Below the pieces are notes generated by a model. That model made no database searches and had not been told where the DNA came from. It saw nothing but the letters and a program-made list of their open reading frames with translations. Shown piece after piece: positions 5,772 through 46,806 of a stretch of 64,000 nucleotides of DNA. Within the stretch, counting starts at the first letter, position 1; every line of letters starts with the position of its first letter. The translations under genes and the position numbers were made by a program. Origin of the DNA: a bacterium (lineage in GTDB: Bacteria > Patescibacteriota > Minisyncoccia > Minisyncoccales > GWA2-46-15); NCBI GenBank assembly GCA_030693425.1, contig JAUYAM010000004.1:23163-87162 (forward strand), given 5' to 3'.

Positions 5772-5813
5772 AACTTCCCGAGAATCCAAGTAATTCATCA
5801 TTAGCCTAGCTAG

Positions 5814-7154: not shown

Positions 7155-7159
7155 CCTAC

Positions 7160-8809
7160 ATGCCTAATTCGGAAATAAACTTTTTCGCCGAAACCACTTT
7201 TCGCAGAGAGAGAAGGCGTTTTGGCATCAAACTAGATGATCGCCGGAAACACATGTACCTGATCGGCAAAACCGGCATGGGCAAGACCAATATGATGTCC
7301 AATATGGCAATTCAGGATATTCAGGCCGGCAGAGGAGTCTGCTTCATCGATCCTCACGGGGAGACGGCCGAAAGTCTGCTGGATTTCATTCCCGCCAGCC
7401 GGATAAACGACGTCATTTACTTTAACCCGGCTGATTTTGATTTTCCGATCGCCTTTAACGTTATGGAAAAAGTAGACTTGAGCCACCGCCACCTGGTGGC
7501 TTCCGGCCTGATGGGAGTATTCAAGAAAATCTGGCCGGACGTCTGGTCAGCCAGAATGGAGTATATTTTAAACAACTCGATCCTGGCGCTTCTGGAGTAT
7601 CCTGGCTCGACCCTGCTGGGCATCAACCGGATGATGGCCGATCCCGAATACCGCCAAAAGGTGGTCGAAAAAATAACCGATCCTGTGGTCAAAGCTTTCT
7701 GGCTTCAGGAATATGCAAGATATACCCAGAGATACGAGGTTGAAGCGACGGCCGCCATTCAGAATAAGGTCGGCCAGTTCATTTCCGCCCCCATAATCCG
7801 CAACATCATCGGCCAGGTCTCCTCGAAGATCGATATGCGCGAAATTATGGACAACCGGAAAATCCTGATCATGAATTTGTCAAAGGGAAGAACAGGGGAG
7901 GACAATTCAACTCTTTTAGGGGCTCTTTTGGTTACAAAATTACAGTTGGCGGCCATGTCTCGGGTCGACATTCCGGAGGAAGAAAGGGCGGATTTTTTTC
8001 TGTACGTTGACGAGTTCCAGAACTTTGCCACCGAATCCTTTGCCACGATTCTGTCTGAGGCCAGGAAATACAGATTGGATTTAATTTTGGGCCATCAGTA
8101 TATTACCCAGATGACAGAAGAAGTCAGGGATGCGGTTTTCGGCAACGTCGGCACCATCGTTTGCTTTCGAATCGGGGCCGAAGACGCCGAATTCCTGGAA
8201 AAGGAGTTCACTCCGGAGTTCATGGCCACGGATTTGGTCAATTTAGGCAAGTACAATGTTTATTTGAAATTAATGATTGACGGCCTGGCCGGCCGGGGAT
8301 TTTCGGCCGAGACCCTGCCGCCGGTCATCGGACTTGAAAAATCCAGCCGGGAAAAGATTATTAAAGTTTCCCGGGAAAGGTACGGCACCCAGAGAAAGAT
8401 TGTTGAAGATAAAATCAGCCGCTGGACCGGGATGACGGAAGAAAAGATAGCGGCCATGCCTCCCAGAGAGCCTCTTCTCTACGATGCCCAGTGCGCCAGT
8501 TGCAAAAAATGGACAAAAGTAGTTTTCAAGCCGGACGGCAAAAGGCCGGTCTATTGCAAAGCCTGTTTAAAAAACATCCAAAGAGAAAGGGAAAAACCGG
8601 TTGAAGAAAAACCCGCGCCAGAGCAGTCGCAGCCCTTGCCTCCGCCGCCGCCCCAGCCCCAGCCCCAAAGCCCTCTTTCTTTGGAGGAAGCGATGGCTAA
8701 GGAACCGGTTTCTTTTTCTTCTAAAAGAGACAGAATCAGAAAGGCTCCGGAAATCGATAGGGTCAAAGAGATGATCAAAGAAGCTTTAAAGCCCAAAGAC
8801 CAGGCTTAA
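7160..8809 (+). CDS. VirD4/TraG/TraD-like (type IV coupling protein-like) P-loop ATPase with C-terminal CxxC..CxxC zinc ribbon and proline-rich tail
   Basis: Walker A is GKTGMGKT, followed by FIDPHGE; Walker B is FFLYVDEFQNF, followed by LILGHQYITQM. The C-terminus has CASCKKWTKVVFKPDGKRPVYCKAC and PLPPPPPQPQPQ. Confidence 0.65.
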   Translation: MPNSEINFFAETTFRRERRRFGIKLDDRRKHMYLIGKTGMGKTNMMSNMAIQDIQAGRGVCFIDPHGETAESLLDFIPASRINDVIYFNPADFDFPIAFNVMEKVDLSHRHLVASGLMGVFKKIWPDVWSARMEYILNNSILALLEYPGSTLLGINRMMADPEYRQKVVEKITDPVVKAFWLQEYARYTQRYEVEATAAIQNKVGQFISAPIIRNIIGQVSSKIDMREIMDNRKILIMNLSKGRTGEDNSTLLGALLVTKLQLAAMSRVDIPEEERADFFLYVDEFQNFATESFATILSEARKYRLDLILGHQYITQMTEEVRDAVFGNVGTIVCFRIGAEDAEFLEKEFTPEFMATDLVNLGKYNVYLKLMIDGLAGRGFSAETLPPVIGLEKSSREKIIKVSRERYGTQRKIVEDKISRWTGMTEEKIAAMPPREPLLYDAQCASCKKWTKVVFKPDGKRPVYCKACLKNIQREREKPVEEKPAPEQSQPLPPPPPQPQPQSPLSLEEAMAKEPVSFSSKRDRIRKAPEIDRVKEMIKEALKPKDQA

Positions 8810-8827
8810 AATCGATTTCAAGGCAAA

Positions 8828-9868
8828 ATGAAGAGCGTTCGCGACTTTAATCTCAAAGGGAAAAAGGTTTTAGTAAGGTGTGATTTCAACGTTCCCCTTA
8901 ATCAGAAAGGGGATATTTTAGATGATTTTCGGATTGAGGCAGCTCTGCCGACCATCCAATATCTTATTGGCCAGGAGGCGAAAGCAATTTTGATGAGCCA
9001 TCTGGACGATCCCGGCGGAAAATTTGTAGAAAGATTAAGATTGACTAAAGTCAGAGACCGGTTGTCTGAGTGTCTGGATTTTCCGATCGCCAAAACCGAC
9101 GATTGCCTGGGGCCGGAAGTCGAGAGCAGAACGGAAAGGATGCGGCCGAAAGAAGTTCTTTTGCTCGAAAATCTCAGGTTTCATTCTGAGGAAGAAGCGG
9201 GGGATTTAAAGTTTGCTGAAAAACTCTCAAAGTTCGGGGAAATCTTTCTCAATGACGCTTTCGGAACTTCGCATCGAGATCACGCTTCTTTTAAAGTAGC
9301 TAGATATCTGCCCTGCGGTTCAGGCCTTCTTTTAGAAAAAGAAATTGAGGTTCTGGCCAAGATTAGGGAAAACGCCGACAGGCCTTTGGTAGTAATCCTC
9401 GGCGGTAAACCCAAGGGGATTGAGTCAAAAATAAGATTCCTGGACAGCATTTCTGCCAAAGCCGATTTTATTCTTTTAGGAAACCTGGTTGACGACGAGT
9501 TAAAGAAAATGGGTTTTAAGTTAGGGGAACCAAAAAAGCTTATCTCGCCGGTCGATTCTTCTGAGGGATTCGACATTGGCCCAAAGACCATTGAGCTTTT
9601 TAAGGAAAAGATTTCTCTGGCCAAGACGGTTTTCTGGTCCGGCCCCTTGGGGAAAATCGAGGAAGATAAGTTTTCTGTTGGCTCTCGAGAAGTCGCCAAA
9701 GTCATTGTTGAAAGCGGAGCCTTTTCGGTTGCCGGCGGCGGAGAAACAACCTGGTTTTTAAGAAAGACAAATCTTTCTAAGAAATTCAGCCATTTATCAA
9801 CAGGCGGAGACGCCCTTCTGATATTCTTGTCGGGAGAAAAGCTTCCGGCCGTAGAAGTTTTGAAATGA
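8828..9868 (+). CDS. pgk: Phosphoglycerate kinase (short form, 346 aa)
   Basis: N-terminal KGKKVLVRCDFNVPL and NDAFGTSHR motifs are present. Confidence 0.85.
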   Translation: MKSVRDFNLKGKKVLVRCDFNVPLNQKGDILDDFRIEAALPTIQYLIGQEAKAILMSHLDDPGGKFVERLRLTKVRDRLSECLDFPIAKTDDCLGPEVESRTERMRPKEVLLLENLRFHSEEEAGDLKFAEKLSKFGEIFLNDAFGTSHRDHASFKVARYLPCGSGLLLEKEIEVLAKIRENADRPLVVILGGKPKGIESKIRFLDSISAKADFILLGNLVDDELKKMGFKLGEPKKLISPVDSSEGFDIGPKTIELFKEKISLAKTVFWSGPLGKIEEDKFSVGSREVAKVIVESGAFSVAGGGETTWFLRKTNLSKKFSHLSTGGDALLIFLSGEKLPAVEVLK

Positions 9869-9871
9869 CAC

Positions 9872-11044
9872 ATGGCAGAAATCAAGAATCTTAAAAAACT
9901 TGCCAACCGGATTTCAAAAGCCATAGCCGAAAAAGAAAGGATCATTTTGTATGGCGATTCCGACATGGACGGCGCCTGTTCTGTTATCATCTTAAAAGAA
10001 GCCATCTGTAGCCTTGGCGGAGACAGCCCGATTATTTACTTTTCCGACAGGAAAAGGGAAGAGCACGGCATTAACAAGAAGGCGCTTGACTTTCTGAAAG
10101 GCAAGGCTCCGGCCTTATTTCTCTCTCTCGATTGCGGCATCGCCAATTTCCGCGAGGTGGAGTTGGCAAAAAAGCTTGGTTTTGAAGTGGCTATTGCCGA
10201 CCATCATAATATTCAGGGAAGGATTCCGAAAGTCAGGATCGTCGTCAATCCAAAACAGGGGAGCAAAAATTCGCCTTTCTATCATTTGGCGGCCGCTGGC
10301 ATCGTTTTTAAATTAGCCGAGGCTATCTTGGGAAGGAAACTTTCCAAAACTCTCAAAGAAGATATGCTGGCGCTGGCGGCTCTGGCGACCCTGGCCGAAC
10401 TTGTCCAGGAGACCGGTGAAAACCAAAAGATTCTAGAGCAGGGCTTGCCTCTTTTGGAAAGTTCCTGGCGGCCGGCAGTCAGACTTTTTTTCAGTTCCAG
10501 CCTGACCAAGAATTGCATTTCAACGAGAGAAATCGTCTGGAAGGTCATTTCAATCATCAATATCACCAGCAAAGAAGGCGTTTTTAGCGAAACTTATCTT
10601 TTTTTGAATTCCCAGACTCCAGAAGAGGCAAGGTTGCGCTTTGAGGAGTTTTTGCGCAAAGGCGTCGAAAGACAAGCGAAGATCGGAGAATTGACAGAAG
10701 AACTCAAGAAAAAAGTTTCTTTTATGGAAAAAGATTCAGCCGTCATTTTTGAGGACCTGAACGATCGGCAATTTCCGATTCTCTCGGCTGTCGCTTCCCG
10801 GATTTGCGATTTTTTCAAGAAGCCGACTTTCATCTTCACCAAGGAAAAAGGAGAGAACTGGGGAGGGTTTAGGATGCCTTTTGAAGAAGACGGCGTCGGA
10901 GCCCTGGCTAGCTGCCGTCAATTATTGAGAAGGTACGGCGGCCATCCGGCGGCCGGAGGCTTCTATTTTGAAAATAAAAACAAGGAAAAGCTAAAAGAGT
11001 GCTTGGCAAAGCATTTTAATAAAAATCTGCATAAATCAGTTTAA
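9872..11044 (+). CDS. DHH/DHHA1 phosphoesterase, RecJ-like
   Basis: Motifs GDSDMDGACS, LDCG, IADHHN and GGHPAAGGF are present. At 390 aa it is shorter than canonical RecJ. Confidence 0.7.
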   Translation: MAEIKNLKKLANRISKAIAEKERIILYGDSDMDGACSVIILKEAICSLGGDSPIIYFSDRKREEHGINKKALDFLKGKAPALFLSLDCGIANFREVELAKKLGFEVAIADHHNIQGRIPKVRIVVNPKQGSKNSPFYHLAAAGIVFKLAEAILGRKLSKTLKEDMLALAALATLAELVQETGENQKILEQGLPLLESSWRPAVRLFFSSSLTKNCISTREIVWKVISIINITSKEGVFSETYLFLNSQTPEEARLRFEEFLRKGVERQAKIGELTEELKKKVSFMEKDSAVIFEDLNDRQFPILSAVASRICDFFKKPTFIFTKEKGENWGGFRMPFEEDGVGALASCRQLLRRYGGHPAAGGFYFENKNKEKLKECLAKHFNKNLHKSV

Positions 11045-11050
11045 ATCATT

Positions 11051-11497
11051 ATGAATCAGCGCCGCATCGTAGTTTATACTGATGGGGGTTCAAGAGGAAA
11101 CCCTGGGCCTTCGGCTTTGGGAGTAGTCATTTGCTCGGAAAAAGGAGAGCCGATAAGAAAATACGGCGAGTTTTTAGGGGAAATGACCAATAATCAGGCC
11201 GAATACCGGGCCGTGATTTTCGCCTTAAAAAAAATCAAGGCTCTCTGGGGTAGAAAGACAGCTGCCAAAATAGAAGTTGAGATAAGGTCTGATTCTGAGC
11301 TTTTGGTCAGCCAATTGATGGGCGAGTACAAGATTCTCGACGAGAATATCCAGAAACTATTTATTTTGGTCTGGAATCTGAAAATTGATTACAAGAAAGT
11401 GGAATTTGTATTGATTCCCCGCGAAGAAAACCAGGAAGCAGATTTTCTGGCCAATGAGGCCTTAGATCAAGAAGATAGGGTCCGGAGGCTAATATAA
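11051..11497 (+). CDS. rnhA: Ribonuclease HI family protein
   Basis: Contains VVYTDGGSRGNPGPSALGVV, NNQAEYRA and ADFLAN. Confidence 0.8.
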   Translation: MNQRRIVVYTDGGSRGNPGPSALGVVICSEKGEPIRKYGEFLGEMTNNQAEYRAVIFALKKIKALWGRKTAAKIEVEIRSDSELLVSQLMGEYKILDENIQKLFILVWNLKIDYKKVEFVLIPREENQEADFLANEALDQEDRVRRLI

Positions 11498-11507
11498 TAA
11501 TGACATC

Positions 11508-12185
11508 ATGGAAAACATTTACGAGAATATGTATCGTGCTGGCGCTAATGTTTTTCAAAACAATCCCAGGATAAAAATTATGTCAGGGATTATTAACCAG
11601 CTTGATTTGAAAGATAAGGACGTTTTAGATATCGGCTGTCACGAAGGGTACCTTTTGTCTTTAATTGAAAACAAAAACAATAATTTTTACGGCCTAGACG
11701 CTAGTAATTATGCCGTTGAAGAATCGTTTAAAAAAGGTATTAAGGTCAAAAAATTCTATTTTGATGGCAAATCAGAAATTCCTTTTTCTGGTAATTCTTT
11801 CGATTTAATCAATGCCGGCGATATCATTGAACATATTTATGATACTGATTTTTTTCTCGAAGAGATTAGAAGATTATTAAGGCCGAATGGTTATTTCCTA
11901 ATTTCAACACCGAATGTCGCTTCTTTTGGCAGAAGAATATTGCTTTTATTAAGCATTAATCCTTTTATCGAAACATCACCTAACGAAGCAGAAAGTTCTG
12001 GACATATAAGGTATTTCACTTTTAAAACCTTAAAAAGAATTCTAGAAAAGCATTCTTTCAAAATTATCTTGAAAAAATCTGATGTTCTGAATTTATCTAA
12101 TGATGGTAGATTCAGATGCTTCCTTCTCCCAAAACTATTTTTAAGTTTAGGGCAAAGTATTATTTATCTTTGCCAGAAGAATTAA
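11508..12185 (+). CDS. Class I SAM-dependent methyltransferase
   Basis: Contains VLDIGCHEGYL (motif I) and INAGDIIEHI. Confidence 0.7.
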   Translation: MENIYENMYRAGANVFQNNPRIKIMSGIINQLDLKDKDVLDIGCHEGYLLSLIENKNNNFYGLDASNYAVEESFKKGIKVKKFYFDGKSEIPFSGNSFDLINAGDIIEHIYDTDFFLEEIRRLLRPNGYFLISTPNVASFGRRILLLLSINPFIETSPNEAESSGHIRYFTFKTLKRILEKHSFKIILKKSDVLNLSNDGRFRCFLLPKLFLSLGQSIIYLCQKN

Positions 12186-12232
12186 AAAAACCACTCTTTG
12201 AAGCGGATTTTTTAATTTCCAGCAAGCCCACC
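12186..12232 (-). repeat. Diverged duplicate of the rnpB 3' terminus plus its terminator (partner copy at 16205-16253)
   Basis: There is a 13-nt identical core (12217-12229 = 16241-16253, minus-sense GGGCTTGCTGGAA). It is followed by a collinear A-run/hairpin/T-run. The hairpin is fully paired only in the minus-sense transcript. Confidence 0.6.
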
Positions 12233-12405
12233 TCTCTGGTTTTAAGAATTCTTTTAAGCCCTTGACAAGGGTTTTTGCTTTTGCTACTGTTACTTTAGTT
12301 AGATAAAGTGCTTTAATTTGATAAAGTGGTGCCCCGCACGCTTGCGTGTGGGGCGGAATCCCGCACCGAGGGCACTGTTTGCCTTCTGGTGCGTGGATAA
12401 AGAAT

Positions 12406-12726
12406 ATGAACTGGGATAATCCTAAAACCAAAGATTTATTTGAAGCGATTCTGCGACTTAAAAGCGTGGCCGAAGCCAAGCGGTTTTTTCGCGATCTTTT
12501 AACCGAGCAAGAAATCATTGAGTTTGGCAAAAGATGGCAGGCAGCCCAGATGCTGGCGAAAAAAGCATCTTATTCTGAAATCGTGGAAAAGACTGGTTTG
12601 AGCTCAACAACCGTGGCGCGGGTTTCCAAGTGGCTCAATAAGGGAACGGGCGGATACAAATTAATGCTTAAAAGATTGAATTCTCATCATCACGCAGCTT
12701 TTCCTAACGGGAAAGGGTTGCGTTGA
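12406..12726 (+). CDS. YerC/YecD (TrpR-like) family protein
   Basis: Contains LFEAILRLKSVAEAKRFFRDLLTEQEI..RWQAAQML..SYSEIVEKTGLSSTTVARVSKWL. ATG 12406 is chosen because the upstream part of the track ORF lies in a structured GC-rich leader. Confidence 0.75.
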   Translation: MNWDNPKTKDLFEAILRLKSVAEAKRFFRDLLTEQEIIEFGKRWQAAQMLAKKASYSEIVEKTGLSSTTVARVSKWLNKGTGGYKLMLKRLNSHHHAAFPNGKGLR

Positions 12727-12748
12727 TGTTTATTTATATATAAACCCA

Positions 12749-12776
12749 GCCCCTTCCCGTTAGGGAAGGGGCTTTT
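12749..12776 (+). terminator. Rho-independent terminator after the yerC-like gene
   Basis: Hairpin GCCCCTTCCC-GTTA-GGGAAGGGGC followed by TTTT. Confidence 0.75.
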
Positions 12777-12846
12777 CGCTTTCGCGAAAGCTCAAACCAG
12801 CACCTTGTAAACCTAGCACCAAAATTTTCTTCAAGGAGGAAGAAAA

Positions 12847-13989
12847 ATGAACACAAACTGGAAGATTTGTATTGTAGAGCTCACCCGCTCCTGCCCATTT
12901 AACTGTCCAAATTGTTACATGAGGCAGCGGGGCGATCTCAACAATCCTGTTGACGGCGTTCTTCACATGCCGCTGGATAACTATCAGCGGATGCTGGAAA
13001 TATTCACCGGGCAGGGCGGAACGGGCATGGAACTCTTGGGTGGAGAACCTTCTTGCCATCCGAATTTCCTGGAAGTAGTAGAACTCTCTCTTCGGACTGG
13101 GTTGGAAACATGGATTTACACTAACCTTAGTCAAATGGGTCGGCAGCCGCGACTCGCTTGGACCTTGATGGAAATGCGTCGGCAATACGACGAGAAGCTT
13201 TTCGTCGTCGGCAAGTCAGCGGTTCCGGACTTGACGGATCCTGAACAGCGAAAGGTTCAAGCATATACGCTTGGCACCAACGACGCAGGTGTGGAACTGT
13301 TTAAGCGTGGCCGGGAGTGGATGATTAGCGCCGGGTGGCGCAAACCATTCTTCGGTGTTGAGAATCTCCTCAACCGGTGCAACATCGTCTGGGCGCCAGC
13401 CATCTACGAGTACGGCTTGCAAACCGGATATTTCTTCGTAGACTGCGAATGGCCGACGTTTCCTGGGCAAAAAGCAGGTTTACGAGAGTATCTAAGATTG
13501 TTGCCAACCGAAGAGCAGTTGCAGAGTTTCGTCGCTGCCATTCAGGAGATTGATCGTCGCTACGGACTACCGGTTGCTTCGCCGGTAATGCCTCACCTTA
13601 CGGGAAAGAGCAAGACCGGAGAGTCGGTGGGATGTATCGCTTTCAAGCAAGCCGCGTTGTATATTGCTGTTAATGGCGACATGCAACTCTGTTCGTCTGG
13701 TCTGCCTCTTCGCGACGAAACTGGTCGGCAATTCAACCTTTTCCGGGATCCATTGGATGAGATTTTGGATAACCCGGTCGTTATTGCCCGCCGGCAAAGT
13801 TGCGAACAGTCGCAGATTCAATCGGGCCATTGCGCGACCTGTGCCGATTTTTCGCGTTGCCTTGCCGGTTGCGCCGCTTTCAGAGAAGCTTTCTACGGCA
13901 CAGCGCTTCGTTCCTATCCGATGTGCCCACAGTATCCGTGGGACAATGATATCCGTCGACTCGTAGAGTCGGCGAAAGGAGATAACTGA
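12847..13989 (+). CDS. Radical SAM/SPASM domain protein
   Basis: 380 aa. The CxxxCxxC motif appears as SCPFNCPNCY, and GGEP is present. The C-terminal SPASM Cys pattern is C..G....C ... CATCADFSRCLAGC ... C. An RBS (AAGGAGGAAG) lies upstream. Confidence 0.85.
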   Translation: MNTNWKICIVELTRSCPFNCPNCYMRQRGDLNNPVDGVLHMPLDNYQRMLEIFTGQGGTGMELLGGEPSCHPNFLEVVELSLRTGLETWIYTNLSQMGRQPRLAWTLMEMRRQYDEKLFVVGKSAVPDLTDPEQRKVQAYTLGTNDAGVELFKRGREWMISAGWRKPFFGVENLLNRCNIVWAPAIYEYGLQTGYFFVDCEWPTFPGQKAGLREYLRLLPTEEQLQSFVAAIQEIDRRYGLPVASPVMPHLTGKSKTGESVGCIAFKQAALYIAVNGDMQLCSSGLPLRDETGRQFNLFRDPLDEILDNPVVIARRQSCEQSQIQSGHCATCADFSRCLAGCAAFREAFYGTALRSYPMCPQYPWDNDIRRLVESAKGDN

Positions 13990-13991
13990 AG

Positions 13992-14987
13992 ATGAAAAGG
14001 ACAAATAGGATTGATGTGGTAGTTCTCGTGGATCCGGTAGGGGGTATTACTCATGACCAGGCGCGAGAAGTGGTTCGGGCCGTGCTTAAATACAACAATG
14101 ATGAAAGCCGTCCGCTTTCCCGTCTCACCTTGACTGGGCAGGAAACAACTACAACTCAATGGCCTGATCTACTGCCCTTTCTTGATTGGGCGAGAATTAT
14201 CAGGCAAGGGGATGGCCTACGAATCTTTGGTAACCTCATCGGAATGACCCCAGAAACCGCTCGCGTTATCGCCGAACTTAAGGTGAGAATGTATGGCGAG
14301 TGGTTTGGCCCGAGCCTTGATGAAGTTGGAGTGCAGGCAATGGTCAATCAAGGAACGGCGTATGATGAGGCAACAGCGATGCTCGCTGGCATAAAGACTG
14401 CTTTGGCAACTGGCGCGTTGATCGGTTTGGAATTTCAGGTTAACCGTCAGAACATCAGCTATGTTGAAGATTTCCTTCGGCTCTGCCAAGAACTGGGCAT
14501 CGAAGGTCATCTAGAAATGCAGGAAACCCAGTTTTCTAAGCCGCGGAATTTGGCCGTAGCTAAGATGTATCGCCAAAGTCTGCCGCCAAAAGAGCAACTC
14601 CGTCGTATCTGTGAAATCGTTGCTGCTCAGGCCGATGTTTCGCCTGATAACCTGGTGTCGCCGTTTTTCACTTGCGGCAGCCAAGACGGCGCCTGCAACT
14701 ACTTTTACCGCGGTCTGTTTATTAGACCGAATGGCCGTGGTGGATTGCGGCAGACTGTTTGTCTGAGCGAGTTGACGGTGATTGACGATAACTTCAAACC
14801 GTCGTGGGCACAAATCGGTCACAGTCTCCGAAATCCTGTCCTTGCTCTTCGTAATATAGCACAGGAGCAAATGGAAGGCGGGTGCCGAACCTGTTCTGTT
14901 TGGAGTCAGTGCCTTGGCGGTTGTCGGGCCATGGCCTATCTTGCCAGCGGTTCGCGGTTTGCCCCGGATCCCAACTGCTGGAAGTAA
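13992..14987 (+). CDS. SPASM domain protein, radical-SAM-like fold but lacking the CxxxCxxC SAM-cluster motif
   Basis: 331 aa. The GGEP position reads LTLTGQET, and no CxxxCxxC motif occurs in the first 200 aa. The C-terminal part has CNYFYRGLFIRPNG....C and CRTCSVWSQCLGGC....C. It starts 2 nt after the upstream gene. Confidence 0.7.
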   Translation: MKRTNRIDVVVLVDPVGGITHDQAREVVRAVLKYNNDESRPLSRLTLTGQETTTTQWPDLLPFLDWARIIRQGDGLRIFGNLIGMTPETARVIAELKVRMYGEWFGPSLDEVGVQAMVNQGTAYDEATAMLAGIKTALATGALIGLEFQVNRQNISYVEDFLRLCQELGIEGHLEMQETQFSKPRNLAVAKMYRQSLPPKEQLRRICEIVAAQADVSPDNLVSPFFTCGSQDGACNYFYRGLFIRPNGRGGLRQTVCLSELTVIDDNFKPSWAQIGHSLRNPVLALRNIAQEQMEGGCRTCSVWSQCLGGCRAMAYLASGSRFAPDPNCWK

Positions 14988-15019
14988 ACTAAAAATGCTA
15001 GGTGCAAGGTATTGGGAAT

Positions 15020-15049
15020 GGGCGGAGAAAAGCTTGCTTTTCTCCGCCC
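15020..15049 (+). terminator. Strong hairpin after the rSAM gene pair
   Basis: 13-bp stem GGGCGGAGAAAAG-CTTG-CTTTTCTCCGCCC. The trailing T-run is weak. Confidence 0.55.
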
Positions 15050-15071
15050 TCTCAATTAATCATTCCAACTT

Positions 15072-16190
15072 ATGAAAATCCAACCGTCAAAATTAAGAGA
15101 GTGGAATACCAAATTTGAGTTTTCAACAAAAATAAACATTTCCGATTGCTCAATTTACCCCTTAACTTTAAAGGAGTTGTTTCTTATTGCTGGGAAAGGA
15201 GCGAAAAAGGAATTTGAGAAATTAAGCTTGGGTTATACCAAAACTTGGGGCGAGGACATTTTGCGGCAAGAGATCGCCAAAACTTACCAGAATATAAAGG
15301 CCGATAATATTTTGGTGACCAACGGCGCTATAGAAGCAATTTTCCTAATTATGAACGTATTGAGTAATACTGGCGACGAAATGATTTCTTTTTTCCCGAA
15401 TTACCAAGCATTGTTCCAAATAGCCAAAACTTGCGGAGTAAAAATAAAATGGTGGAAATTGGATGAAAAAAAATATTTCTCCCCTGATTTTAACCAGTTA
15501 TCAAGATTAATTACGAAAGACACGAAAGCTATTATTATTAACCAACCTCAAGTGCCGACTGGTTTTGTTTTTACTAAAAGCGATTATCTGACTTTGATTA
15601 AAATTTGTCGTAAATGCGGCCTTTATTTGGTTTCTGACGAGGTCTGCCGCTGGCTTTATTTGGATAAAAGCAATGGAATTTCGCCAGCAGTCGATCTTTA
15701 TGATAAGGCAATCAGTATTGGCGATGTTTCAAAATCTTTCGGCGCCGGCGGTCTGAGAATCGGCTGGCTAGCCTCCCAAAATAGGGAGATATTAGAAAAA
15801 TGTATACCCTTGCGAGGGTATACGACAATGAGCAATTCTGCGCCGAGCGAGTATTTAGCAACATTAATTTTGAGAAATAGGAAAGAGATCCTTAAATCGC
15901 GGTTAACAACGGCGGAGATAAATTACCAGTTACTTGATAAGTTTGTCCGTAAGAATATAGATAAAATATCATTAATCATGCCAGCTGGCGGGGTAACGGT
16001 TTTCCCGAAGTTGAAATTAAAAATAAATTCTTTGAATTTTTGCAAAAAACTGATTGAGAAGAAAAATACTATGTTAGTGCCAGGAACAGTTTATGGAATG
16101 CCAAAAAATCTTAGACTAGGTTTTGGTTGTAAAACAAGATTGTTTAGAAAAGGGTTAGCTGGATTGCAGCAGTATTTAAAATCTCTTTGA
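15072..16190 (+). CDS. Pyridoxal phosphate-dependent aminotransferase (class I/II)
   Basis: 372 aa. Contains VTNGAIEAI and SKSFGAGGLRIGW (PLP-lysine region). Confidence 0.8.
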   Translation: MKIQPSKLREWNTKFEFSTKINISDCSIYPLTLKELFLIAGKGAKKEFEKLSLGYTKTWGEDILRQEIAKTYQNIKADNILVTNGAIEAIFLIMNVLSNTGDEMISFFPNYQALFQIAKTCGVKIKWWKLDEKKYFSPDFNQLSRLITKDTKAIIINQPQVPTGFVFTKSDYLTLIKICRKCGLYLVSDEVCRWLYLDKSNGISPAVDLYDKAISIGDVSKSFGAGGLRIGWLASQNREILEKCIPLRGYTTMSNSAPSEYLATLILRNRKEILKSRLTTAEINYQLLDKFVRKNIDKISLIMPAGGVTVFPKLKLKINSLNFCKKLIEKKNTMLVPGTVYGMPKNLRLGFGCKTRLFRKGLAGLQQYLKSL

Positions 16191-16210
16191 GCTCTATTTA
16201 CTTTAATCAG

Positions 16211-16237
16211 AAAATCCCGCTTTAGGCGGGACTTTTT
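16211..16237. terminator. Bidirectional terminator shared by the aminotransferase gene and rnpB
   Basis: AAAA-TCCCGC-TTTAG-GCGGGA-CTTTTT. Confidence 0.7.
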
Positions 16238-16692
16238 GAATTCCAGCAAGCCCGTAAGCCGAATTCTGTTTTAGGCGATCATTTATCTGGTCCCGCAATT
16301 ACTTGCGGGATCTAGCGAACTACTTTTTACCCCGCCCCCTATGCAGATCAATTCTAGAACCCAAGAAAATATACTTATTAGGGTTCTTTCAGGTTTTTTC
16401 CTGATAGAATCAATTGCTTAGGGGGCGGGGCTTTGTTCTTGCACCCAGGTAAGTGTTTAGCCGTTTCACTCCCGCCATTACTGGCGGGACTCGCCCTATG
16501 CGACAAAAGTTTTTGTCGCCGGGCGCCCGACCCTTTCGGGTCTAGGGCGTCTCTGCTCGCAACTCTCGCGTTACCGCGTGCGGGCGTTACCCGCTACCCT
16601 GCTCCGAGCACATAAATTATGTGCTCGGGGGTGTTCGGACTTTCCTCCCCCCACAAAAATATGAAGAGCGGTCGCCCGACTTGCTGGAATAG
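16238..16692 (-). ncRNA. rnpB: RNase P RNA, bacterial type A
   Basis: In minus sense the P1 helix pairs TTCCAGCAAG (16689-16680) with CTTGCTGGAA (16250-16241). GGAGGAAAGTCCGAACAC is the P4 5' strand, and ACAGAATTCGGCTTACGGG matches the conserved ACAGAAnnCGGCUUA 3' region. Confidence 0.9.
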
Positions 16693-16750
16693 CTTGATTT
16701 TAACACCTTTAAGTTTCTTGTCAATTAAGGTAAGATTAAGAATTAAACCT

Positions 16751-18136
16751 ATGTTTTCAAGATTTCTAGATAAAAAACTGACCGGTCCGGCGTTGATACT
16801 GGCCGGTTCCACCTTTTTGAGCGCGGTTTTTGGACTTTGGCGCGACCGGCTTTTAGCTCACATTTTTGGCGCCAGCCGTATTTTAGACATTTATACCGCT
16901 TCTTTCAGAATTCCTGACTTAGTCTATAATTTTTTGATTGCCGGCGGGCTAGCGGTAGCTTTTTTGCCGGTTTTTGCCGAATACTTTTTTCAAGACAAAG
17001 ACCAGGCCTGGAAAGCGACAAACTATATTTTTAACGCCTTTGCCTTACTCTTAGTTGTACTGGCAGCGATTCTGTTCTTGCTGGCTCCGGCATTATCAGA
17101 TTTAATTCTGCCGGGATTTTCAACGCAGGAAAAGGGAATTGCGATTGCTCTGTCCAGGCTTTTGCTTTTAAACCCGATTTTAATGGGATTGGCGAGCGTG
17201 TTTTCGGGTGTTCTTCAGTATTTTCACAAATTCCTTGTTTTTGGCCTAGCACCCCTGTTTTATAATTTGGGAATTATTTTCGGGATCCTGTTTTTGGCGC
17301 CGAGCTTTGGGATTTTTGGAGTGGGGGCGGGCGTGATTATAGGAGCTATCTGTTATTTTTTGATCCAGCTTATTTTTGCAGTTTCCTGCGGATTTTCTTG
17401 GCGCCCTCTCCTTGATTTTAAGGACGAATCATTGGCCAAAGTTTTCCAATTGATGGTTTTGCGCACAGTTTCCGTTTTGAGTTCCCAGGCGAGTGTCTTG
17501 GTGATGACAGCCATTGCTTCGATTATCGGGGCCGGGGCAATCTCGGTTTTCTATTTTGCCAATAACTTACAGGGTTTTTTGGCCGGTTTAGTCGGGGTTT
17601 CTTTTGCGACGGTCGTTTTTCCTTCCTTGGCCAAAGCTGCCAGCGAAAGGGATTCCGAAAACTTTTCCAAAGACTTCCATTCCGGGTTCCGGCAGGTTTT
17701 GTGGCTTTCTCTGGCGGGGAGCCTCCTGCTTTTTATTTTTCGCGACTTGGCCGTCAAAATTTTGCTGGGTGGCGGCCGTTTCTCTCCAGAGGCGCAAATC
17801 CTCACCGCTTCCGCCGTCGGCATTTTTGCTTTTTCCATTTTTGCCCAAGCAGAAAACCCCCTGCTTTTGAGGGCATTTTTTTCACTGAAGGAGGCAAAAA
17901 AGCCGGCCATGATTTCTCTCGCCGCCATGTTCATTAATATCGCCCTTTCTTGCTTTCTGGTGAAGTTTTTGACGGGAAATAACTGGATGGTTAGCTTTTT
18001 GGAGAAGTCCCTGACCGGAGGAAAGATAGCCAATTTTTCCTTGCTCGGCCTGCCCCTGGCGTTTTCTATTTCTTCCATTTTGCAGTTCGTTTTGCTGACA
18101 GCATTTCTTAAAAGAAAACTTAAGCAGAGCTTTTAA
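16751..18136 (+). CDS. murJ: Lipid II flippase MurJ/MviN
   Basis: Polytopic membrane protein (STFLSAVFGLWRDRLLAHIFGAS.., IPDLVYNFLIAGGL). The start is set at ATG 16751 because the upstream 44 codons of the track ORF lie inside rnpB. Confidence 0.85.
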   Translation: MFSRFLDKKLTGPALILAGSTFLSAVFGLWRDRLLAHIFGASRILDIYTASFRIPDLVYNFLIAGGLAVAFLPVFAEYFFQDKDQAWKATNYIFNAFALLLVVLAAILFLLAPALSDLILPGFSTQEKGIAIALSRLLLLNPILMGLASVFSGVLQYFHKFLVFGLAPLFYNLGIIFGILFLAPSFGIFGVGAGVIIGAICYFLIQLIFAVSCGFSWRPLLDFKDESLAKVFQLMVLRTVSVLSSQASVLVMTAIASIIGAGAISVFYFANNLQGFLAGLVGVSFATVVFPSLAKAASERDSENFSKDFHSGFRQVLWLSLAGSLLLFIFRDLAVKILLGGGRFSPEAQILTASAVGIFAFSIFAQAENPLLLRAFFSLKEAKKPAMISLAAMFINIALSCFLVKFLTGNNWMVSFLEKSLTGGKIANFSLLGLPLAFSISSILQFVLLTAFLKRKLKQSF

Positions 18137-18142
18137 ACCATC

Positions 18143-19957
18143 ATGATCGACCAAAATTGTTTAATGAGGAATTTTTGCGTCATTGCCCATATCGACGCCG
18201 GCAAATCGACTCTAGCAGATCGTTTTTTGGAATTGACCAAGACCGTCGCCCAAGACAAAATGCGGCCGCAGTATTTGGACATGATGGATATAGAAAGAGA
18301 AAGGGGGATTACCATCAAGATGCAGCCAGTGCGGATGAACTATACGCTAGGCGCTAAACGCTATACGCTAAATTTGATAGACACTCCCGGACACGTGGAT
18401 TTCAGTTACGAGGTCTCCCGTTCTTTAGCTGCGGTCGAGGGGGCAATCTTGTTGGTCGACGCTACCAAAGGCGTCCAGGCGCAGACGATTGCCAATTTAG
18501 AGCAAGCAAAGAAACAGAATTTGGTCATTATCCCGGTAATCAATAAAATTGATTCGCCGCAGGCGATGATTGAAGAAGCAAAGGAAGAAATTATGAAGAT
18601 TATTGATATTGATCCGGAAGAGATTCTTTTAATTTCCGCCAAAACCGGTCAAGGAGTGGCAGAATTATTGAATAGGGTAGTGGAGAAAATTCCCGTGCCA
18701 GCAGGAGATCCTTCAAAGCCATTCAGAGCTTTAATATTTGATTCAAAATTTGATGTTCATAAAGGAGTAATGGCTTTTGTCAGGGTGGTTGACGGCAACA
18801 TTAAAAAAGGCGAAAAAATCACCTTATTTTTCAACAAGGAAACAGGCGATGTTCTGGAAGTTGGTTTTTTCAAGCCGGAACTGTCGCCTTTAGCAGAGCT
18901 TTCAGCCGGCGAAATCGGGTATTTGGCAACCGGCATCAAGGAGCCGGGCAAAGTTCATGTAGGCGACACAATTTCCTTGCTACAAACTATAAACTATAAA
19001 CCGCAAACTTCAATAAAACCTCTGCCCGGATACCAGGAGCCCAAATCAATGGTTTTCGCTTCTTTTTACCCGGAGAACGCTGACGATTTTGATTTATTAA
19101 AAGACGCTTTGAATAAATTAAAGCTTAGCGATGCCTCATTGTTTTTTGAGCCGGAAGCCAAGGAAATGCTCGGTCGGGGATTCAGATGCGGATTTCTGGG
19201 GTTATTGCATACCGAGATTACCACCGAACGTTTGGGGCGCGAATTCGGGCTGGGCTTGGTAATCTCTTCGCCGTCGGTAGTGTATAAAATTATTGACAGT
19301 AGAAATGAAGAAAGGGAAATTTACACTGCCGCTGACTGGCCGGAACAATTCCAGATCAAAGAAGCCAAAGAGCCGTGGATGGTTTTGCGAGTGGCCACGC
19401 CCCTTAGTTATATTGGCCCTGTTTTCGGAGTCCTGTCAAAACTTTCCGGCAAGCATATTAATACCGGTCATTTGAGCCACGAAAAAATCCTCATTTCTTA
19501 TGAAGCGCCTTTGCGGGAAATTATCACTAACCTTTATGAAAACATCAAGAACGTCACTTCCGGATACGCTTCGATCGATTATCAGCCGCTGGGATACCGG
19601 CCGGCCCAATTGGTGAAGCTTGACATCTTGATTTCCGGCAGAAAATATGAAGCCTTTTCTAAGATAGTGCCGGAAGAAAAAGCGTTCGAGGAAGGCAAAA
19701 AAGTCGTTCAGAAACTGAAGCAAACCCTGCCGCGCCAGCTGTTTTCGGTCGCTTTGCAAGCAGCCATTGGATCCAAGGTGATTGCCCGGGAAACCATTTC
19801 TGCCAAGGGCAGGGACGTCATTGCTCCTTTGTACGGCGGCGATTATACTCGGAAAAGAAAGCTTTTGGAGCAGCAGAAAAAAGGCAAAGCCGAGCTGAAA
19901 GAAAAAGGCCAGCTTCATATTCCCCAAAAGGTTTTCCTGGAGATGCTGCGCAGCTAG
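18143..19957 (+). CDS. lepA: Translation elongation factor 4 (LepA)
   Basis: 604 aa. Contains AHIDAGKST, DTPGHVDF, NKID and the C-terminal LepA domain (GGDYTRKRKLLEQQKKGK). Confidence 0.95.
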   Translation: MIDQNCLMRNFCVIAHIDAGKSTLADRFLELTKTVAQDKMRPQYLDMMDIERERGITIKMQPVRMNYTLGAKRYTLNLIDTPGHVDFSYEVSRSLAAVEGAILLVDATKGVQAQTIANLEQAKKQNLVIIPVINKIDSPQAMIEEAKEEIMKIIDIDPEEILLISAKTGQGVAELLNRVVEKIPVPAGDPSKPFRALIFDSKFDVHKGVMAFVRVVDGNIKKGEKITLFFNKETGDVLEVGFFKPELSPLAELSAGEIGYLATGIKEPGKVHVGDTISLLQTINYKPQTSIKPLPGYQEPKSMVFASFYPENADDFDLLKDALNKLKLSDASLFFEPEAKEMLGRGFRCGFLGLLHTEITTERLGREFGLGLVISSPSVVYKIIDSRNEEREIYTAADWPEQFQIKEAKEPWMVLRVATPLSYIGPVFGVLSKLSGKHINTGHLSHEKILISYEAPLREIITNLYENIKNVTSGYASIDYQPLGYRPAQLVKLDILISGRKYEAFSKIVPEEKAFEEGKKVVQKLKQTLPRQLFSVALQAAIGSKVIARETISAKGRDVIAPLYGGDYTRKRKLLEQQKKGKAELKEKGQLHIPQKVFLEMLRS

Positions 19958-20058
19958 ATTAAAGGCGCAACCAGTAAGATAATCGTGCTCAGGGCGACGA
20001 CAATAATGACAATCTTCCAGAGGATATTTAAGAATGATTTTGATCGGAATTTGGGCAT
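19954..20058 (-). CDS. Possible 34-aa single-pass membrane peptide (MPKFRSKSFLNILWKIVIIVVALSTIILLVAPLI)
   Basis: Hand-translated ORF convergent with lepA; its stop overlaps the lepA stop (CTAG). It has a basic N-terminus plus a hydrophobic helix, and the RBS is weak. Confidence 0.25.
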   Translation of the reverse strand: MPKFRSKSFLNILWKIVIIVVALSTIILLVAPLI

Positions 20059-20237
20059 TATTCTATGACCCCATAGGAAATCGCAAGGGTTTCCACAGGG
20101 CAATACGAGTTATGTTAATCAATTTGCCGATTGTTGTCTGGTGATAGATAAGTATTTTCCAATTCGAAATTTTGAATTTTACTTCAATTTTATTATAGCA
20201 CATTTTTGATTAGTCATTAATAAATCATGGAAAATAT

Positions 20238-20654
20238 TTGAATTTCCAACGGGGCATGATAGCAAAAACAAAGACAAAGAAAAGCAAAAAGGATCTGCCG
20301 CAAAGCCGGATCAATTTGTGGTTTTTTATAGTTATTTTTCTGCTGATCGGGATATTTTTGGCATCTTCCGGCTGGCAAATGGCCCAGAGGCGCAAAGAAC
20401 TGTTTTTAAGAACCGACGCTCTGGAAAAAGAGATCGCCGTCTTGGAGAAAAGGAATCTGGAGCTGAAAGCCGGCACGGATTCTTCTTCCCAAGAAAGTTT
20501 TCTGGAGAAAAAAGCCAGAGAGAACTTCCAGCTAAAAAAACCTGGAGAAAAAGTGGTGATTGTGGTCGTTTCGCCTTCGGCCAGCCCGGAGCCGGCAGCC
20601 CGGGAGCAATCAGGGTTTTGGTGGCAAAAAATCTTAGATAAATTAGGCTTATAG
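20238..20654 (+). CDS. Septum formation initiator family protein (FtsB/DivIC-like)
   Basis: Basic N-terminus, single TM helix, coiled coil (LEKEIAVLEKRNLELK) and EKKARENFQLKKPGEKVV. Confidence 0.65.
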   Translation: MNFQRGMIAKTKTKKSKKDLPQSRINLWFFIVIFLLIGIFLASSGWQMAQRRKELFLRTDALEKEIAVLEKRNLELKAGTDSSSQESFLEKKARENFQLKKPGEKVVIVVVSPSASPEPAAREQSGFWWQKILDKLGL

Positions 20655-20655
20655 T

Positions 20656-20689
20656 CCTCACTCTACTGCTACGTAGCACTAGAGTGAGG
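20656..20689. terminator. 34-nt near-perfect palindrome/terminator hairpin (core ACTGCTACGTAGCA shared with 59448-59481)
   Basis: CCTCACTCTA-c-TGCTACGTAGCA-c-TAGAGTGAGG followed by TTT. Confidence 0.6.
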
Positions 20690-20715: not shown

Positions 20716-20786
20716 GCGGGTGTAGTACAGTGGCAGTACGCTAGCTTCCCAAGCTAGACACGGGAGTTCGATTCTCCTCACCCGCT
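20716..20786 (+). tRNA. tRNA-Gly (anticodon CCC)
   Basis: Hand-folded cloverleaf. The acceptor stem pairs GCGGGTG with CACCCGC, the anticodon loop is TTCCCAA and the T-loop is TTCGATT. CCA is not encoded. Confidence 0.9.
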
Positions 20787-39621: not shown

Positions 39622-39682
39622 CTGGGGGAGTAAGACCTTTTCCATCCACAGTTTGTTTCAGTTCTGAAAGGAGGCACAACAC

Positions 39683-46798: not shown

Positions 46799-46806
46799 CA
46801 TATTTT

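Follow-up and report, generated by a model that had tools for sequence, protein, structure and literature searches.

The RNase H–rnpB interval

We analyzed a 64-kb stretch of DNA (the window, W) and refer to the loci of relatives by L-numbers. The segment of interest lies between an RNase H gene (11051–11497, plus strand; Pfam RNase_H/RVT_3), the left conserved flank of a variable interval, and rnpB, the gene for RNase P RNA, on the minus strand (16239–16687). The latter is an intact class A gene (Rfam bacterial RNase P class A, 132 bits, full model 1–367), full length and with helix P1 intact. Its terminator at 16211–16240 (minus strand) is bidirectional and functional-looking, with folds of −17.6 and −17.8 kcal/mol on the two strands, and also closes an aminotransferase gene. 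Downstream of RNase H is a gene for a class I SAM-dependent methyltransferase (11508–12185, plus strand; 30–35% GC), which was also present in L006/7, L088, and L096 and persisted as a 17-nt 3′ remnant in L082.

A TrpR-like gene of the yerC/yecD family follows on the plus strand (12403–12773, comprising an ORF at 12403–12726 and its own terminator at 12748–12773). Its identity was supported by both NCBIfam (TIGR02531, 76.9 bits, cut-off 42.2) and Pfam (PF01371, 72.6 bits). The 3′ half of yerC and the terminator shared 90.7% DNA identity with L002, and yerC across candidate phyla radiation (CPR) bacteria showed ~70% identity between phylum-level groups. A distant CPR lineage had yerC located elsewhere. 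The yerC promoter region (12256–12328, plus strand) contains a hairpin, AAGCCCTTGACAAGGGTTT, holding the −35 box TTGACA (12262–12267), a −10-like TACTGT (12285–12290), and two 18-nt direct repeats (12293–12328) that are operator-like in appearance; this region was conserved throughout the relatives and also at L092, a distant locus. Upstream of it is a 26-nt spacer specific to W (12230–12255). The yerC leader forms a GC-rich double hairpin (12329–12402, plus strand; −48.3 kcal/mol, z = −6.1) that was found only in W, being absent from relatives and unique within the window.

The remaining genes are lineage-specific cargo. Two plus-strand ORFs spanning 12847–14987 encode a radical SAM/SPASM protein (12847–13989) and a SPASM partner without the CxxxCxxC motif (13992–14987). 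This family was very rare, with only three other proteins at E < 1e-10, and the pair was absent from all relatives’ loci compared. A class I/II aminotransferase gene (15072–16190, plus strand) follows, and its nearest NCBIfam models (PRK07324, VioD, and GntC) all scored under their cut-offs. GC content was 51–54% in the radical-SAM pair and 35–42% in the aminotransferase gene, with a background of 43–50%. An earlier note on this DNA had reported that no integrase is present, which was borne out. Pfam searches gave no match to integrase, recombinase, or transposase families in any ORF of 11–16.2 kb or in the window’s 58 largest non-overlapping ORFs (4/58 had no Pfam match of any kind), and the scanned cargo ORFs of L002, L006, L084, L086, and L089 contained no recombinase family. 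An integron-type cassette array was rejected, as there was no integrase and the repeats described below consist of a gene end plus terminator, not attC-like sites recurring between genes.

The repeated rnpB 3′ end and terminator

The 3′ end of rnpB and its terminator recur as a direct repeat near the end of the methyltransferase gene. Positions 12187–12229 and 16211–16253 aligned over 43 nt at 74% identity, the longest direct repeat found in a search of 11000–17500. Within it is an exact 13-nt core that corresponds to the rnpB 3′ end. The plus-strand core, TTCCAGCAAGCCC, occurs exactly twice in the window, once distally (12217–12229) and once as the last 13 nt of rnpB (16241–16253). Base composition predicts 0.0011 further exact copies on both strands, and the blastn E-value for the 13-mer match alone was ~0.07 (93-nt query vs window). 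Re-reading the sequence confirmed the repeat, the minus-sense strings quoted for it in the earlier note, and the loss of similarity beyond the core, where local alignment of the next ~45 nt was non-significant (p = 0.07 vs shuffles). The same note had asked whether the repeat belongs to a common terminator family. Short-word blastn of each copy against the 64-kb window returned only the other copy and 10–12-nt chance matches. A dispersed terminator or palindromic repeat family (REP/MITE-like) was rejected for the window on its two copies and on the confinement of rnpB-end repeats to the yerC-bearing clade across 59 loci.

The distal element comprises a terminator copy at 12184–12216 (minus strand), with an A-run, a decayed hairpin (CCGCTTCAAAGAGTGG in minus sense), and a T-run, and the 13-nt rnpB 3′-end copy at 12217–12229 (minus strand), which is the 3′ strand of helix P1. 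In minus sense the stem has six pairs (one G-U) and then seven U. It folds better in that sense, as previously claimed, with −9.9 kcal/mol vs −5.5 kcal/mol in plus sense, though the hairpin is weak either way and does not outperform shuffles (z = −1.0 and −0.7). The element had no Rfam family match, and no minus-strand promoter was predicted between it and yerC. In W it is now a decayed hairpin without a clear function of its own.

The element has a native counterpart in another genome. L082, a relative with an empty site, has a single terminator/rnpB junction consisting of the last 17 nt of a methyltransferase ORF, a terminator, and the rnpB 3′ end, and positions 12169–12229 matched this junction at 88.5% identity over 61 nt. 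The L006 distal copy matched the same junction at 88.2% over 68 nt. The W distal terminator is orthologous to the native L082 terminator and shared 85% identity with it, compared with 61% to W’s own proximal terminator. Distal terminators (W, L006, L086, and L082) grouped across genomes at 61–85%, and the proximal terminators of L006, L086, L005, and L043 formed a second group at 82–100%. Because of the identity to the L082 junction, we consider the distal copy a displaced native rnpB end. The proposal that it began as an rnpB terminator stands: its homology to the rnpB 3′ end and terminator is genuine, and it lies on the native side of the insertion, with the methyltransferase gene outside it as pre-insertion context and the target restored at the proximal boundary.

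Synteny, empty sites, and exchange in relatives

Most loci with both RNase H and rnpB had pgk-DHH-RNaseH beside rnpB-murJ-lepA and no yerC. RNase H directly faced rnpB in outgroup relatives, and in six loci whose minus-strand rnpB was confirmed by Rfam, 5–54 nt separated the RNase H stop codon from the 3′ end of rnpB. Empty sites were seen in L082, L005, L043, and all outgroup loci. The earlier note expected the empty state to be the methyltransferase gene, a single terminator, and rnpB. This arrangement was found only as the 17-nt remnant in L082 and in L088, where the contig breaks off after the methyltransferase gene, a terminator, and 11 nt from the start of the rnpB end; the usual empty state was RNase H facing rnpB. 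As an indirect hint, the L082 sequence is what a site regenerated by excision would be expected to show.

One clade carried yerC between RNase H and rnpB in every non-empty locus. This position was occupied by yerC in L002, L006/7, L084, L086, L087/L091, L089, and L097, with differing neighbors on both sides. The repeat is most strongly confirmed by two further lineages, in which the scar recurs at the equivalent place. L006/L007 (position 6800) and L086 (position 4266) both had the order terminator, last 17–20 nt of the resident rnpB, and yerC −35 box. The retained rnpB fragment was 13, 17, or 20 nt depending on lineage; the 20-nt L006 fragment abuts the −35 box, and W and L086 place theirs 12–26 nt from it. 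Among 59 rnpB loci, only W, L006/7, and L086 had direct repeats of at least 13 nt starting in the last 20 nt of rnpB, and in each of these the partner lay immediately before the yerC −35 box. The fragment was missing from L002, L084, L087, L089, and L097 despite their conserved yerC promoters. Since the scar is common to three diverged lineages, it is old or recurrent and does not mark a recent event in W. Since these lineages share only yerC, which the same scar precedes at its −35 box in each, yerC is a long-term resident.

Empty genomes L005, L043, and L082 were nested among filled genomes by flanking-gene identity, with relationships judged from pairwise identities alone, of genes that themselves recombine. 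Such nesting implies that the segment was lost precisely or was gained more than once at a single nucleotide position; each of these looks like a site-specific process. L005 and L043 were 93–94% identical to L082, yet they had the proximal-type terminator and L082 the distal type.

The RNase H–rnpB interval is a recombination hotspot. A MurA segment was 94% identical in DNA between L084 and L087 within flanks of 70–76%. L088 and W shared 86% amino acid identity in RNase H and 88% in the methyltransferase but only 56% in DHH. L084 and L087 each contained a second, truncated RNase H 3′ end (113–140 nt, 77–81% to the resident gene), rnpB alleles were mosaic, and the window was patchy in composition. 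The suggestion that this DNA was acquired from relatives held for exchange within the interval and failed for a single recent gain by W. A companion tRNA-Thr case was not reproduced, as no partial tRNA copies were found (16 nt, ≤1 mismatch).

Core positions 10–13 are GTCC in the ancestral state and GCCC (W), ATCC (L006), and ATTA (L086) in the distal copies. Each distal core has the derived state of its own genome and shares it with the proximal core, and the adjoining terminators within a genome were just ~45–61% alike. These shared genome-specific substitutions suggest continuing recombination between the two cores. The L006 proximal core has T7, which creates a C-A mismatch in helix P1, whereas C7 is retained in its distal core. 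In L043, the 5′ strand of P1 is L005-like and the 3′ strand is L086-like.

Origin of the scar and turnover of cargo

We favor, at a probability of roughly 60%, a reading in which the distal copy is the displaced original rnpB 3′ end and terminator and the cargo was later swapped by recombination, with the first insertion event outside the reach of this explanation. Positions 12184–12229 would be the original rnpB 3′ end with its original terminator. DNA starting at the yerC promoter would have inserted ~20 nt inside the rnpB 3′ end, where rnpB is met by the convergent RNase H gene and, at a later stage, by the methyltransferase gene. The incoming DNA would have supplied substitutes for both the rnpB 3′ end and the terminator, so that the ribozyme gene stayed intact. 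The configuration would then be a property of this whole CPR clade and no recent gain by W, with yerC, its promoter, and its terminator as the constant part. The genes from the yerC terminator to the rnpB terminator, and those from RNase H to the scar, would have been replaced lineage by lineage. The route was likely recombination with DNA from relatives, with the conserved RNase H, yerC, and rnpB as anchors. We infer both the sequence of these events and that recombination did the work instead of a dedicated integrase. Some observations sit uneasily with this reading. One old duplication followed by independent drift predicts GTCC in every distal copy, where the derived states of each genome were seen instead; something prevents the cores from diverging, although stretches of 13–20 nt are poor substrates for plain homologous recombination; and the nested empty genomes imply precise loss or repeated gain.

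Possible but doubtful is an excisable cassette, extending from the yerC promoter to the proximal terminator and cycling still or recently via the 13–20-nt core as attL/attR, with a recombinase that another part of the genome or a different element would provide. Repeated excision and re-integration would keep the cores identical while the terminators stay different, which is the pattern found within each genome. The fragment lies at or within 12–26 nt of the yerC −35 box, as for the cassette’s own att arm, and L082, with its distal-type terminator joined to a complete rnpB, is the predicted post-excision state. The L006 T7/C7 difference and the mixed P1 strands of L043 look like crossovers in the last ~10 nt of rnpB, and integrative elements restoring ssrS or ffs are documented (PMC7192596, PMC12540744). 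However, neither the window nor the relatives’ scanned cargo ORFs contained a tyrosine or serine recombinase or a transposase, yerC is highly conserved in CPR bacteria and would be unusual mobile content, and the retained fragment varies in length by lineage. The proximal terminator was also constant across cargos, which fits cargo swapping between fixed anchors better.

The other readings fared worse. The island interpretation of the earlier note was right about the displaced rnpB end, the empty sites, and the missing integrase, and went too far in taking the bracketed 4 kb (yerC, radical-SAM pair, and aminotransferase) as one island acquired by W at a methyltransferase-facing rnpB. A direct repeat of the target 3′ end with the intact gene restored would fit such an island, as would the junctions with methyltransferase sequence in L082 and L088. 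That account is largely refuted by synteny and is highly improbable: at least seven other lineages have yerC at this site beside different cargo, and all non-empty loci of the clade keep it there, with only the genes that follow it differing; L006/7 and L086 have the scar yet share only yerC with W; the block splits into three compositional classes; and the integrase is absent. It is also unlikely that the distal copy was retained for a present function, as a bidirectional terminator/insulator separating the methyltransferase gene from the yerC promoter, or as an upstream promoter element or RNA motif that has to match helix P1 of RNase P RNA. Its terminator-like geometry, its retention by three diverged lineages at a site bordering the yerC −35 box on the upstream side, and the co-variation of its core with the resident rnpB favor a function, whereas the weak W hairpin, the lack of a predicted minus-strand promoter or Rfam match, and the five loci that miss the element with conserved yerC promoters argue against one. 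A chance match of two intrinsic terminators, or a common terminator or repeat family, is already refuted for the window and has a negligible probability. An A-run, hairpin, and T-run are common to intrinsic terminators by construction and the 13-mer alone is weak by E-value, but almost no extra exact copies are expected and no others occurred, L006/7 and L086 have the same structure in the same place, and the distal copy matches the native L082 junction over 61 nt.

Genomic islands and prophages that have integrated at tRNA or tmRNA gene 3′ ends form the class catalogued by Islander (PMC4383910). The locus in W is like them in its insertion within the 3′ end of a structural RNA gene, restoration of that gene by incoming DNA, a displaced 3′ fragment as a direct repeat at the far end, and empty sites in relatives. 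It differs in its target, rnpB, and in having no integrase gene in or near the segment. Its scar adjoins yerC, a conserved housekeeping-type regulator across the clade, its cargo is swapped with both ends fixed, and its fragment is 13–20 nt beside a homologous but diverged terminator. Beyond tRNA and tmRNA, ssrS (6S RNA) was an integrative-element target in 13 cases of the TIGER survey (PMC7192596) and ffs (4.5S RNA) is the integration target of phage phiEf11 (PMC12540744). Those RNA genes likewise act as attachment sites that are restored and that show identical core repeats, but unlike the segment in W the elements bring an integrase of their own, located beside the att site, and can be recognized as phages or islands. 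We found no report of rnpB as a restored attachment target in the literature searched.

Hypervariable islands of Prochlorococcus are reportedly flanked by partial tRNA genes, as Hackl and colleagues are said to have described in 2023 for tycheposons. Many cargo blocks in tycheposon hotspots reportedly lack their own recombinase, tyrosine recombinases are said to be identifiable, and arrays of several fragments to be common. As there, a fixed hotspot beside an RNA gene swaps cargo here and partial RNA-gene ends mark past integrations, but the present locus has a single fragment, lacks a recombinase, and is bounded by a conserved resident gene. Variable gene sets at the pneumococcal cps locus (dexB-aliA) and the O-antigen locus (galF-gnd) are replaced by homologous recombination in conserved flanks, with mosaic identity profiles similar to the 94% vs 70–76% seen here. 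Such exchange leaves no duplicated fragment of a flanking gene, and accounts for the cargo turnover but not for the scar. Campbell-type single-crossover integration of a circular DNA bearing part of the target, a putative process in these bacteria, would flank an insert with a complete gene and a 5′-truncated second copy, and the copies would differ if the donor was a relative. The rnpB duplication of 13–20 nt is short for RecA-dependent recombination, but the second RNase H 3′ ends of L084 and L087 fit this mode well.

The repeated rnpB end and the genes it brackets

A complete bacterial class A RNase P RNA gene (rnpB; Rfam 132 bits, model positions 1-367) was found on the minus strand at 16239-16687. 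Its last 13 nt, TTCCAGCAAGCCC on the plus strand (16241-16253), occurred once more in the same orientation at 12217-12229, with 0.0011 extra exact copies of this core expected from base composition on both strands. The longest direct repeat within 11000-17500 paired 12187-12229 with 16211-16253 (43 nt, 74%) and took in the A-run/hairpin/T-run of the terminator. An earlier note, which proposed a 4-kb island integrated at the rnpB 3' end, had described such an identical core with a collinear terminator in the same orientation, and both are present. Short-word blastn with the two copies found no other copy of either member in all 64 kb, and only 10-12-nt chance matches besides the partner, so there is no terminator repeat family in the window, an alternative that the earlier note had raised.

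The distal hairpin had decayed (-9.9 kcal/mol in minus sense, -5.5 in plus sense), and the values for the proximal hairpin, at the present end of rnpB, were -17.8 and -17.6 kcal/mol. Better pairing of the distal hairpin as a minus-sense transcript, noticed before, is correct but hinges on one position. The similarity had also been said to end abruptly at the inner edge of the core, and indeed the alignment beyond it (12230-12275 against 16254-16300) was not significant (p = 0.07); its score was matched or exceeded by 7% of shuffles and was rejected as evidence of longer homology. An Rfam search of 11900-13000 with E up to 5 returned only sub-threshold chance matches (psRNA14, miRNA hairpins), and the idea that the yerC leader or the distal element belongs to a known RNA family was rejected.

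Left of the distal copy were pgk (8828-9868) and genes for a DHH phosphoesterase (9872-11044), RNase H (11051-11497), and a class I methyltransferase (11508-12185, 30-35% GC), while murJ and lepA were to the right of rnpB. The DNA between the copies was patchy in composition. It contained a YerC/YecD TrpR-like gene (yerC, 12403-12726) that had a promoter and a terminator of its own as well as two 18-nt operator-like repeats. After this gene came cargo consisting of a radical SAM/SPASM protein paired with a SPASM-only partner (12847-14987, 51-54% GC) and an aminotransferase (15072-16190, 35-42% GC). The radical SAM pair weakly resembled the GeoRSP and pseudo-SAM/SPASM families, and no ORF for a precursor peptide was evident. 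This radical SAM family was very rare, with only three other proteins at E < 1e-10 among 5.8 billion (P0242-P0244; 69%, 65%, and 44% identity). Pfam scans of the 58 largest non-overlapping ORFs in the window matched no integrase, recombinase, or transposase family, in agreement with the earlier remark that no integrase is present.

The junction upstream of yerC in relatives

We compared 64 kb of this genome with up to 21 kb from each relative, using at least two genome and at least 80 metagenome loci anchored on MurJ and at least 14 further loci from YerC and methyltransferase protein look-ups (loci of relatives carry L numbers). A Logan contig matched window positions 7541-20684 with one mismatch, and the locus was present in read set SRR13727538. 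The usual gene order in relatives was pgk-DHH-RNaseH and then rnpB-murJ-lepA, with the RNase H stop and the rnpB 3' end 5-54 nt apart in six loci where minus-strand rnpB was confirmed by Rfam. In the outgroup locus L036, rnpB (813-1229) shared a strand with RNase H and murJ, an inversion compared with the window; strand hints from nhmmer, without Rfam confirmation, place L010, L016, L034, L035, L037, and others as possible further cases.

Pairwise identity of the flanking proteins, whose genes themselves recombine, grouped the window with L002, L084/L089, L086 (=L004), L006/L007, L087/L091, and the tight group L005/L043/L082 as clade A, leaving the remaining loci as the outgroup. All clade A loci but L005, L043, and L082 had yerC between RNase H and rnpB. 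Genes on its left varied by locus (none, methyltransferase, amino-acid kinase plus methyltransferase, MurA, or a set of glycosyltransferase, MurA, and radical SAM gene), as did those on its right (a tRNA-His/histidine ammonia-lyase/PALP/HisRS set, an LDcluster4 fusion, or unknown ORFs). None of the cargo genes of the window were present in any fetched relative.

The yerC promoter consisted of TTGACA, 17 nt, and TACTGT, followed by the two 18-nt direct repeats CTTTAGTTAGATAAAGTG and CTTTAATTTGATAAAGTG (12262-12328), and the same layout was found in L002, L006, L084, L086, L087, L089, L097, and L092. It was kept even in a distant CPR lineage with yerC elsewhere, between rpmE-prfA and rpsB-tsf, which suggests from sequence conservation that YerC may autoregulate via its own promoter repeats. 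Between these repeats and the yerC start, a 74-nt GC-rich double hairpin (12329-12402; -48.3 kcal/mol, z = -6.1) was single-copy in the window, belonged to no Rfam family, and was absent from the yerC leaders of all examined relatives.

Fragments of the rnpB end also preceded this promoter in other members of clade A. In L006/L007, a terminator came after the methyltransferase stop, then TTCCAGCAAATCCGTAAGCC (the last 20 nt of their own rnpB with one difference), which abutted the yerC promoter at its TTGACA. L086 had a terminator and TATTCCAGCAAATTAGT 12 nt upstream of the yerC -35 box, with 17 nt identical to its own rnpB end. Among 59 rnpB-bearing loci scanned, direct repeats (13 nt or longer) that began within the final 20 nt of rnpB were limited to the window, L006/L007, and L086, and the partner was always just upstream of yerC. 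The junction pattern was TTCCAGYAARNNNNTAAGCCTTGACA, with variants. L002, L084, L087, L089, and L097 had no rnpB-end fragment. That TAAGCC(C) before the -35 box in the window could be the tail of the 20-nt fragment is only a suggestion from comparison with L006.

L082 was an empty site: past the RNase H stop, 17 nt matched the final codons of the methyltransferase gene, and a single terminator stood between them and a full-length rnpB. Its junction was 88.5% identical to window positions 12169-12229 over 61 nt and 88.2% identical to the distal copy of L006 over 68 nt; in the same comparison the window's own two copies aligned over only 25 nt. Comparison of the terminators over 33 nt upstream of the core placed the distal ones of the window, L006, and L086 with L082 (61-85%) and the proximal ones of L006, L086, L005, and L043 in a second group (82-100%). 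Such a layout would result from an insertion that pushed the original rnpB end and terminator aside and supplied new ones. By these alignments, the distal element is best read as the displaced native end of rnpB, in a configuration that belongs to the clade. The methyltransferase-terminator-rnpB order that the earlier note had predicted for relatives probably once existed, as the remnant in L082 indicates, but survives only there and perhaps in L088, whose contig ends 11 nt into the rnpB end, after the methyltransferase.

Two other flanks were considered. The methyltransferase gene of L096 (86% identical) had a stop directly followed by TCCAGAAAGCCC and the promoter-like TTGATAAAGGTTTTT, without a terminator (958-1010), and may represent a further eroded form of the same junction. 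The flank GAAAAAGTGACAGGCACCTAAGTA, shared by L086 and L005, was dropped as orthologous native context, being a terminus of a MITE-like element. This element (L086 3997-4236, inverted ends AGGTGCCTGTCACCTTTTTC) was located between RNase H and the distal terminator; pieces of it occurred in L087 (12550-12760) and L005 (5845-5870), and related palindromes centred on CGATCG in several relatives.

Origin of the scar and exchange at the locus

We propose that an insertion ~20 nt inside rnpB would have put yerC at this site, with the distal element marking the insertion point. The radical SAM pair and aminotransferase would then be later, lineage-specific cargo, flanked by the yerC terminator on one side and the rnpB terminator/3' end on the other, both of them conserved anchors. 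Core positions 10-13 were GTCC in outgroup genomes and L082/L005. In genomes with two copies, both were alike at these positions, with GCCC in the window, ATCC in L006, and ATTA in L086. Two cores that both carry their genome's own derived bases are at odds with an old duplicate drifting alone, which should retain GTCC. The proximal core of L006 had T7, producing a C-A mismatch in helix P1 of the RNase P RNA, while its distal core had the still complementary C7. The empty sites of L005/L043 contained a proximal-type terminator and ~200 nt of remnant, and that of L082 a distal-type terminator; these loci had flanking proteins 93-94% identical and were nested among filled genomes. This requires either two losses of the segment that differed in manner, one of them exact at the core, or several gains at a single nucleotide position. 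Taken together, the co-changed cores, the T7/C7 difference, and the nested empty sites favour continuing recombination between the two cores.

The same observations keep open a reading in which the segment is a cassette, beginning at the yerC promoter and ending with the spare rnpB terminus and terminator, that is repeatedly excised and re-inserted, whether through an unrecognised mechanism or by a recombinase whose gene lies elsewhere. Such cycling would account for both cores staying identical to each genome's own rnpB allele, for the chimeric P1 helices, and for precisely emptied sites nested among filled ones. However, no recombinase was found in the window or in the relatives' cargo ORFs scanned, yerC is a housekeeping-type gene, the fragments are of unequal length (13, 17, and 20 nt), and the proximal terminator is the same across different cargos, leaving us to judge it unlikely. 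It predicts a circle junction, ...GGCGGGACTTTTTGAATTCCAGCAAGCCC + ACCTCTCTGGTTTTAAGAATTCTTTTAAGCCCTTGACAAGGG, and an emptied-site junction, ...GAAGCGGATTTTTTAATTTCCAGCAAGCCC + GTAAGCCGAATTCTGTTTTAGGCGATC.

The interval between RNase H and rnpB as a whole behaved as a recombination hotspot. L084 and L087 had 70-76% DNA identity across pgk-DHH-RNase H and 94% across the MurA segment, and protein identities between L088 and the window were 86% for RNase H, 88% for the methyltransferase, and only 56% for DHH. rnpB was itself a mosaic: L043 combined an L005-like P1 5' strand with an L086-like 3' strand, a 43-nt 3' insertion was present in L005, L043, and L086 and not in L082, and a ~100-nt helix insertion was common to the window and L087. 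This last insertion (16330-16430) is bounded by a 16-nt inverted repeat, and its counterpart in L087/L091 matches closely, at about 90% as judged by eye in the alignment. Neither L006, their sister, nor L082, L005, or L086 has it. The insertion resembles a mobile or exchanged piece of DNA inside the ribozyme gene.

L084/L085 and L087/L091 had an additional copy of the RNase H 3' end upstream of yerC, 5'-truncated and 113-140 nt long (L084 8322-8461; L087 9637-9749). It was 77-81% identical to the resident gene and had the RNase H terminator after it; imported genes (glycosyltransferase, MurA, and radical SAM) separated the two copies. It is a scar of the same kind on the other flank and fits single-crossover insertion of a relative's DNA. 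In L002, a 42-nt repeat (4717-4758 and, after hisS, 9388-9430) bracketed yerC and a histidine-themed cargo (5523-9408; tRNA-His(GTG), histidine ammonia-lyase, PALP enzyme, and HisRS). It was rejected as a second bracket type, as it is the palindromic RNase H terminator and thus analogous, with rnpB not involved. yerC of L002 had 90.7% DNA identity to that of the window, against 66-75% in the flanks. YerC is ~70% identical across very distant CPR groups, so its conservation alone is uninformative on transfer, and the case for a recent transfer of yerC between the two is weakened.

Comparison with RNA-gene islands, and other elements of the window

Displaced gene-end fragments are a standard marker for mapping islands in tRNA and tmRNA genes; here rnpB, a new kind of target, shows the same signature in a host group with tiny genomes whose gene gain is little known. 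A restored RNA gene with a displaced 3' fragment is the signature of tRNA/tmRNA islands (PMC4383910) and has been extended to ssrS (PMC7192596) and ffs (PMC12540744), while no report of rnpB as such an integration target was found in the literature searched. The rnpB locus has this signature but not the defining integrase, and is therefore not filed within the tRNA/tmRNA-island family; we regard it as a variant of the RNA-gene-island kind, combined with flank-anchored cassette exchange. Several features together suggest a gene-acquisition route independent of a resident integrase: the missing recombinase gene, the fixed regulator at the boundary, the cargo that is swapped, the duplication of the ends of the two flanking genes (seen in different relatives), and direct evidence that lineages exchange DNA. 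If ongoing excision and re-insertion underlie the concerted core change, the locus offers a tractable system for studying gene movement in uncultured, reduced bacteria; otherwise it is an old scar of recombination and of ordinary interest.

A companion case at tRNA-Thr in the earlier note was not reproduced. With 16-mers and at most one mismatch, the window contained no partial copies of its three tRNA genes (20716-20786, 39550-39622, and 46806-46878), and the direct repeats around tRNA-Thr did not involve the tRNA itself. Just upstream of pgk, a TrwB/VirD4-like coupling-protein ATPase with a treble-clef zinc finger (7160-8809) was conserved across the clade, at the orthologous position in L002, L084, L087, and L091, and may be relevant to how these bacteria take up or transfer DNA. 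At the start of the window, the 3' part of a 23S rRNA gene (Rfam model 2459-2925, 467 nt) was spread over 1861 nt (1-1861) that included a plus-strand ORF (1005-1496) with a LAGLIDADG endonuclease domain (PF00961, E = 1.3e-10); the interruption is most likely an intron with a homing endonuclease.
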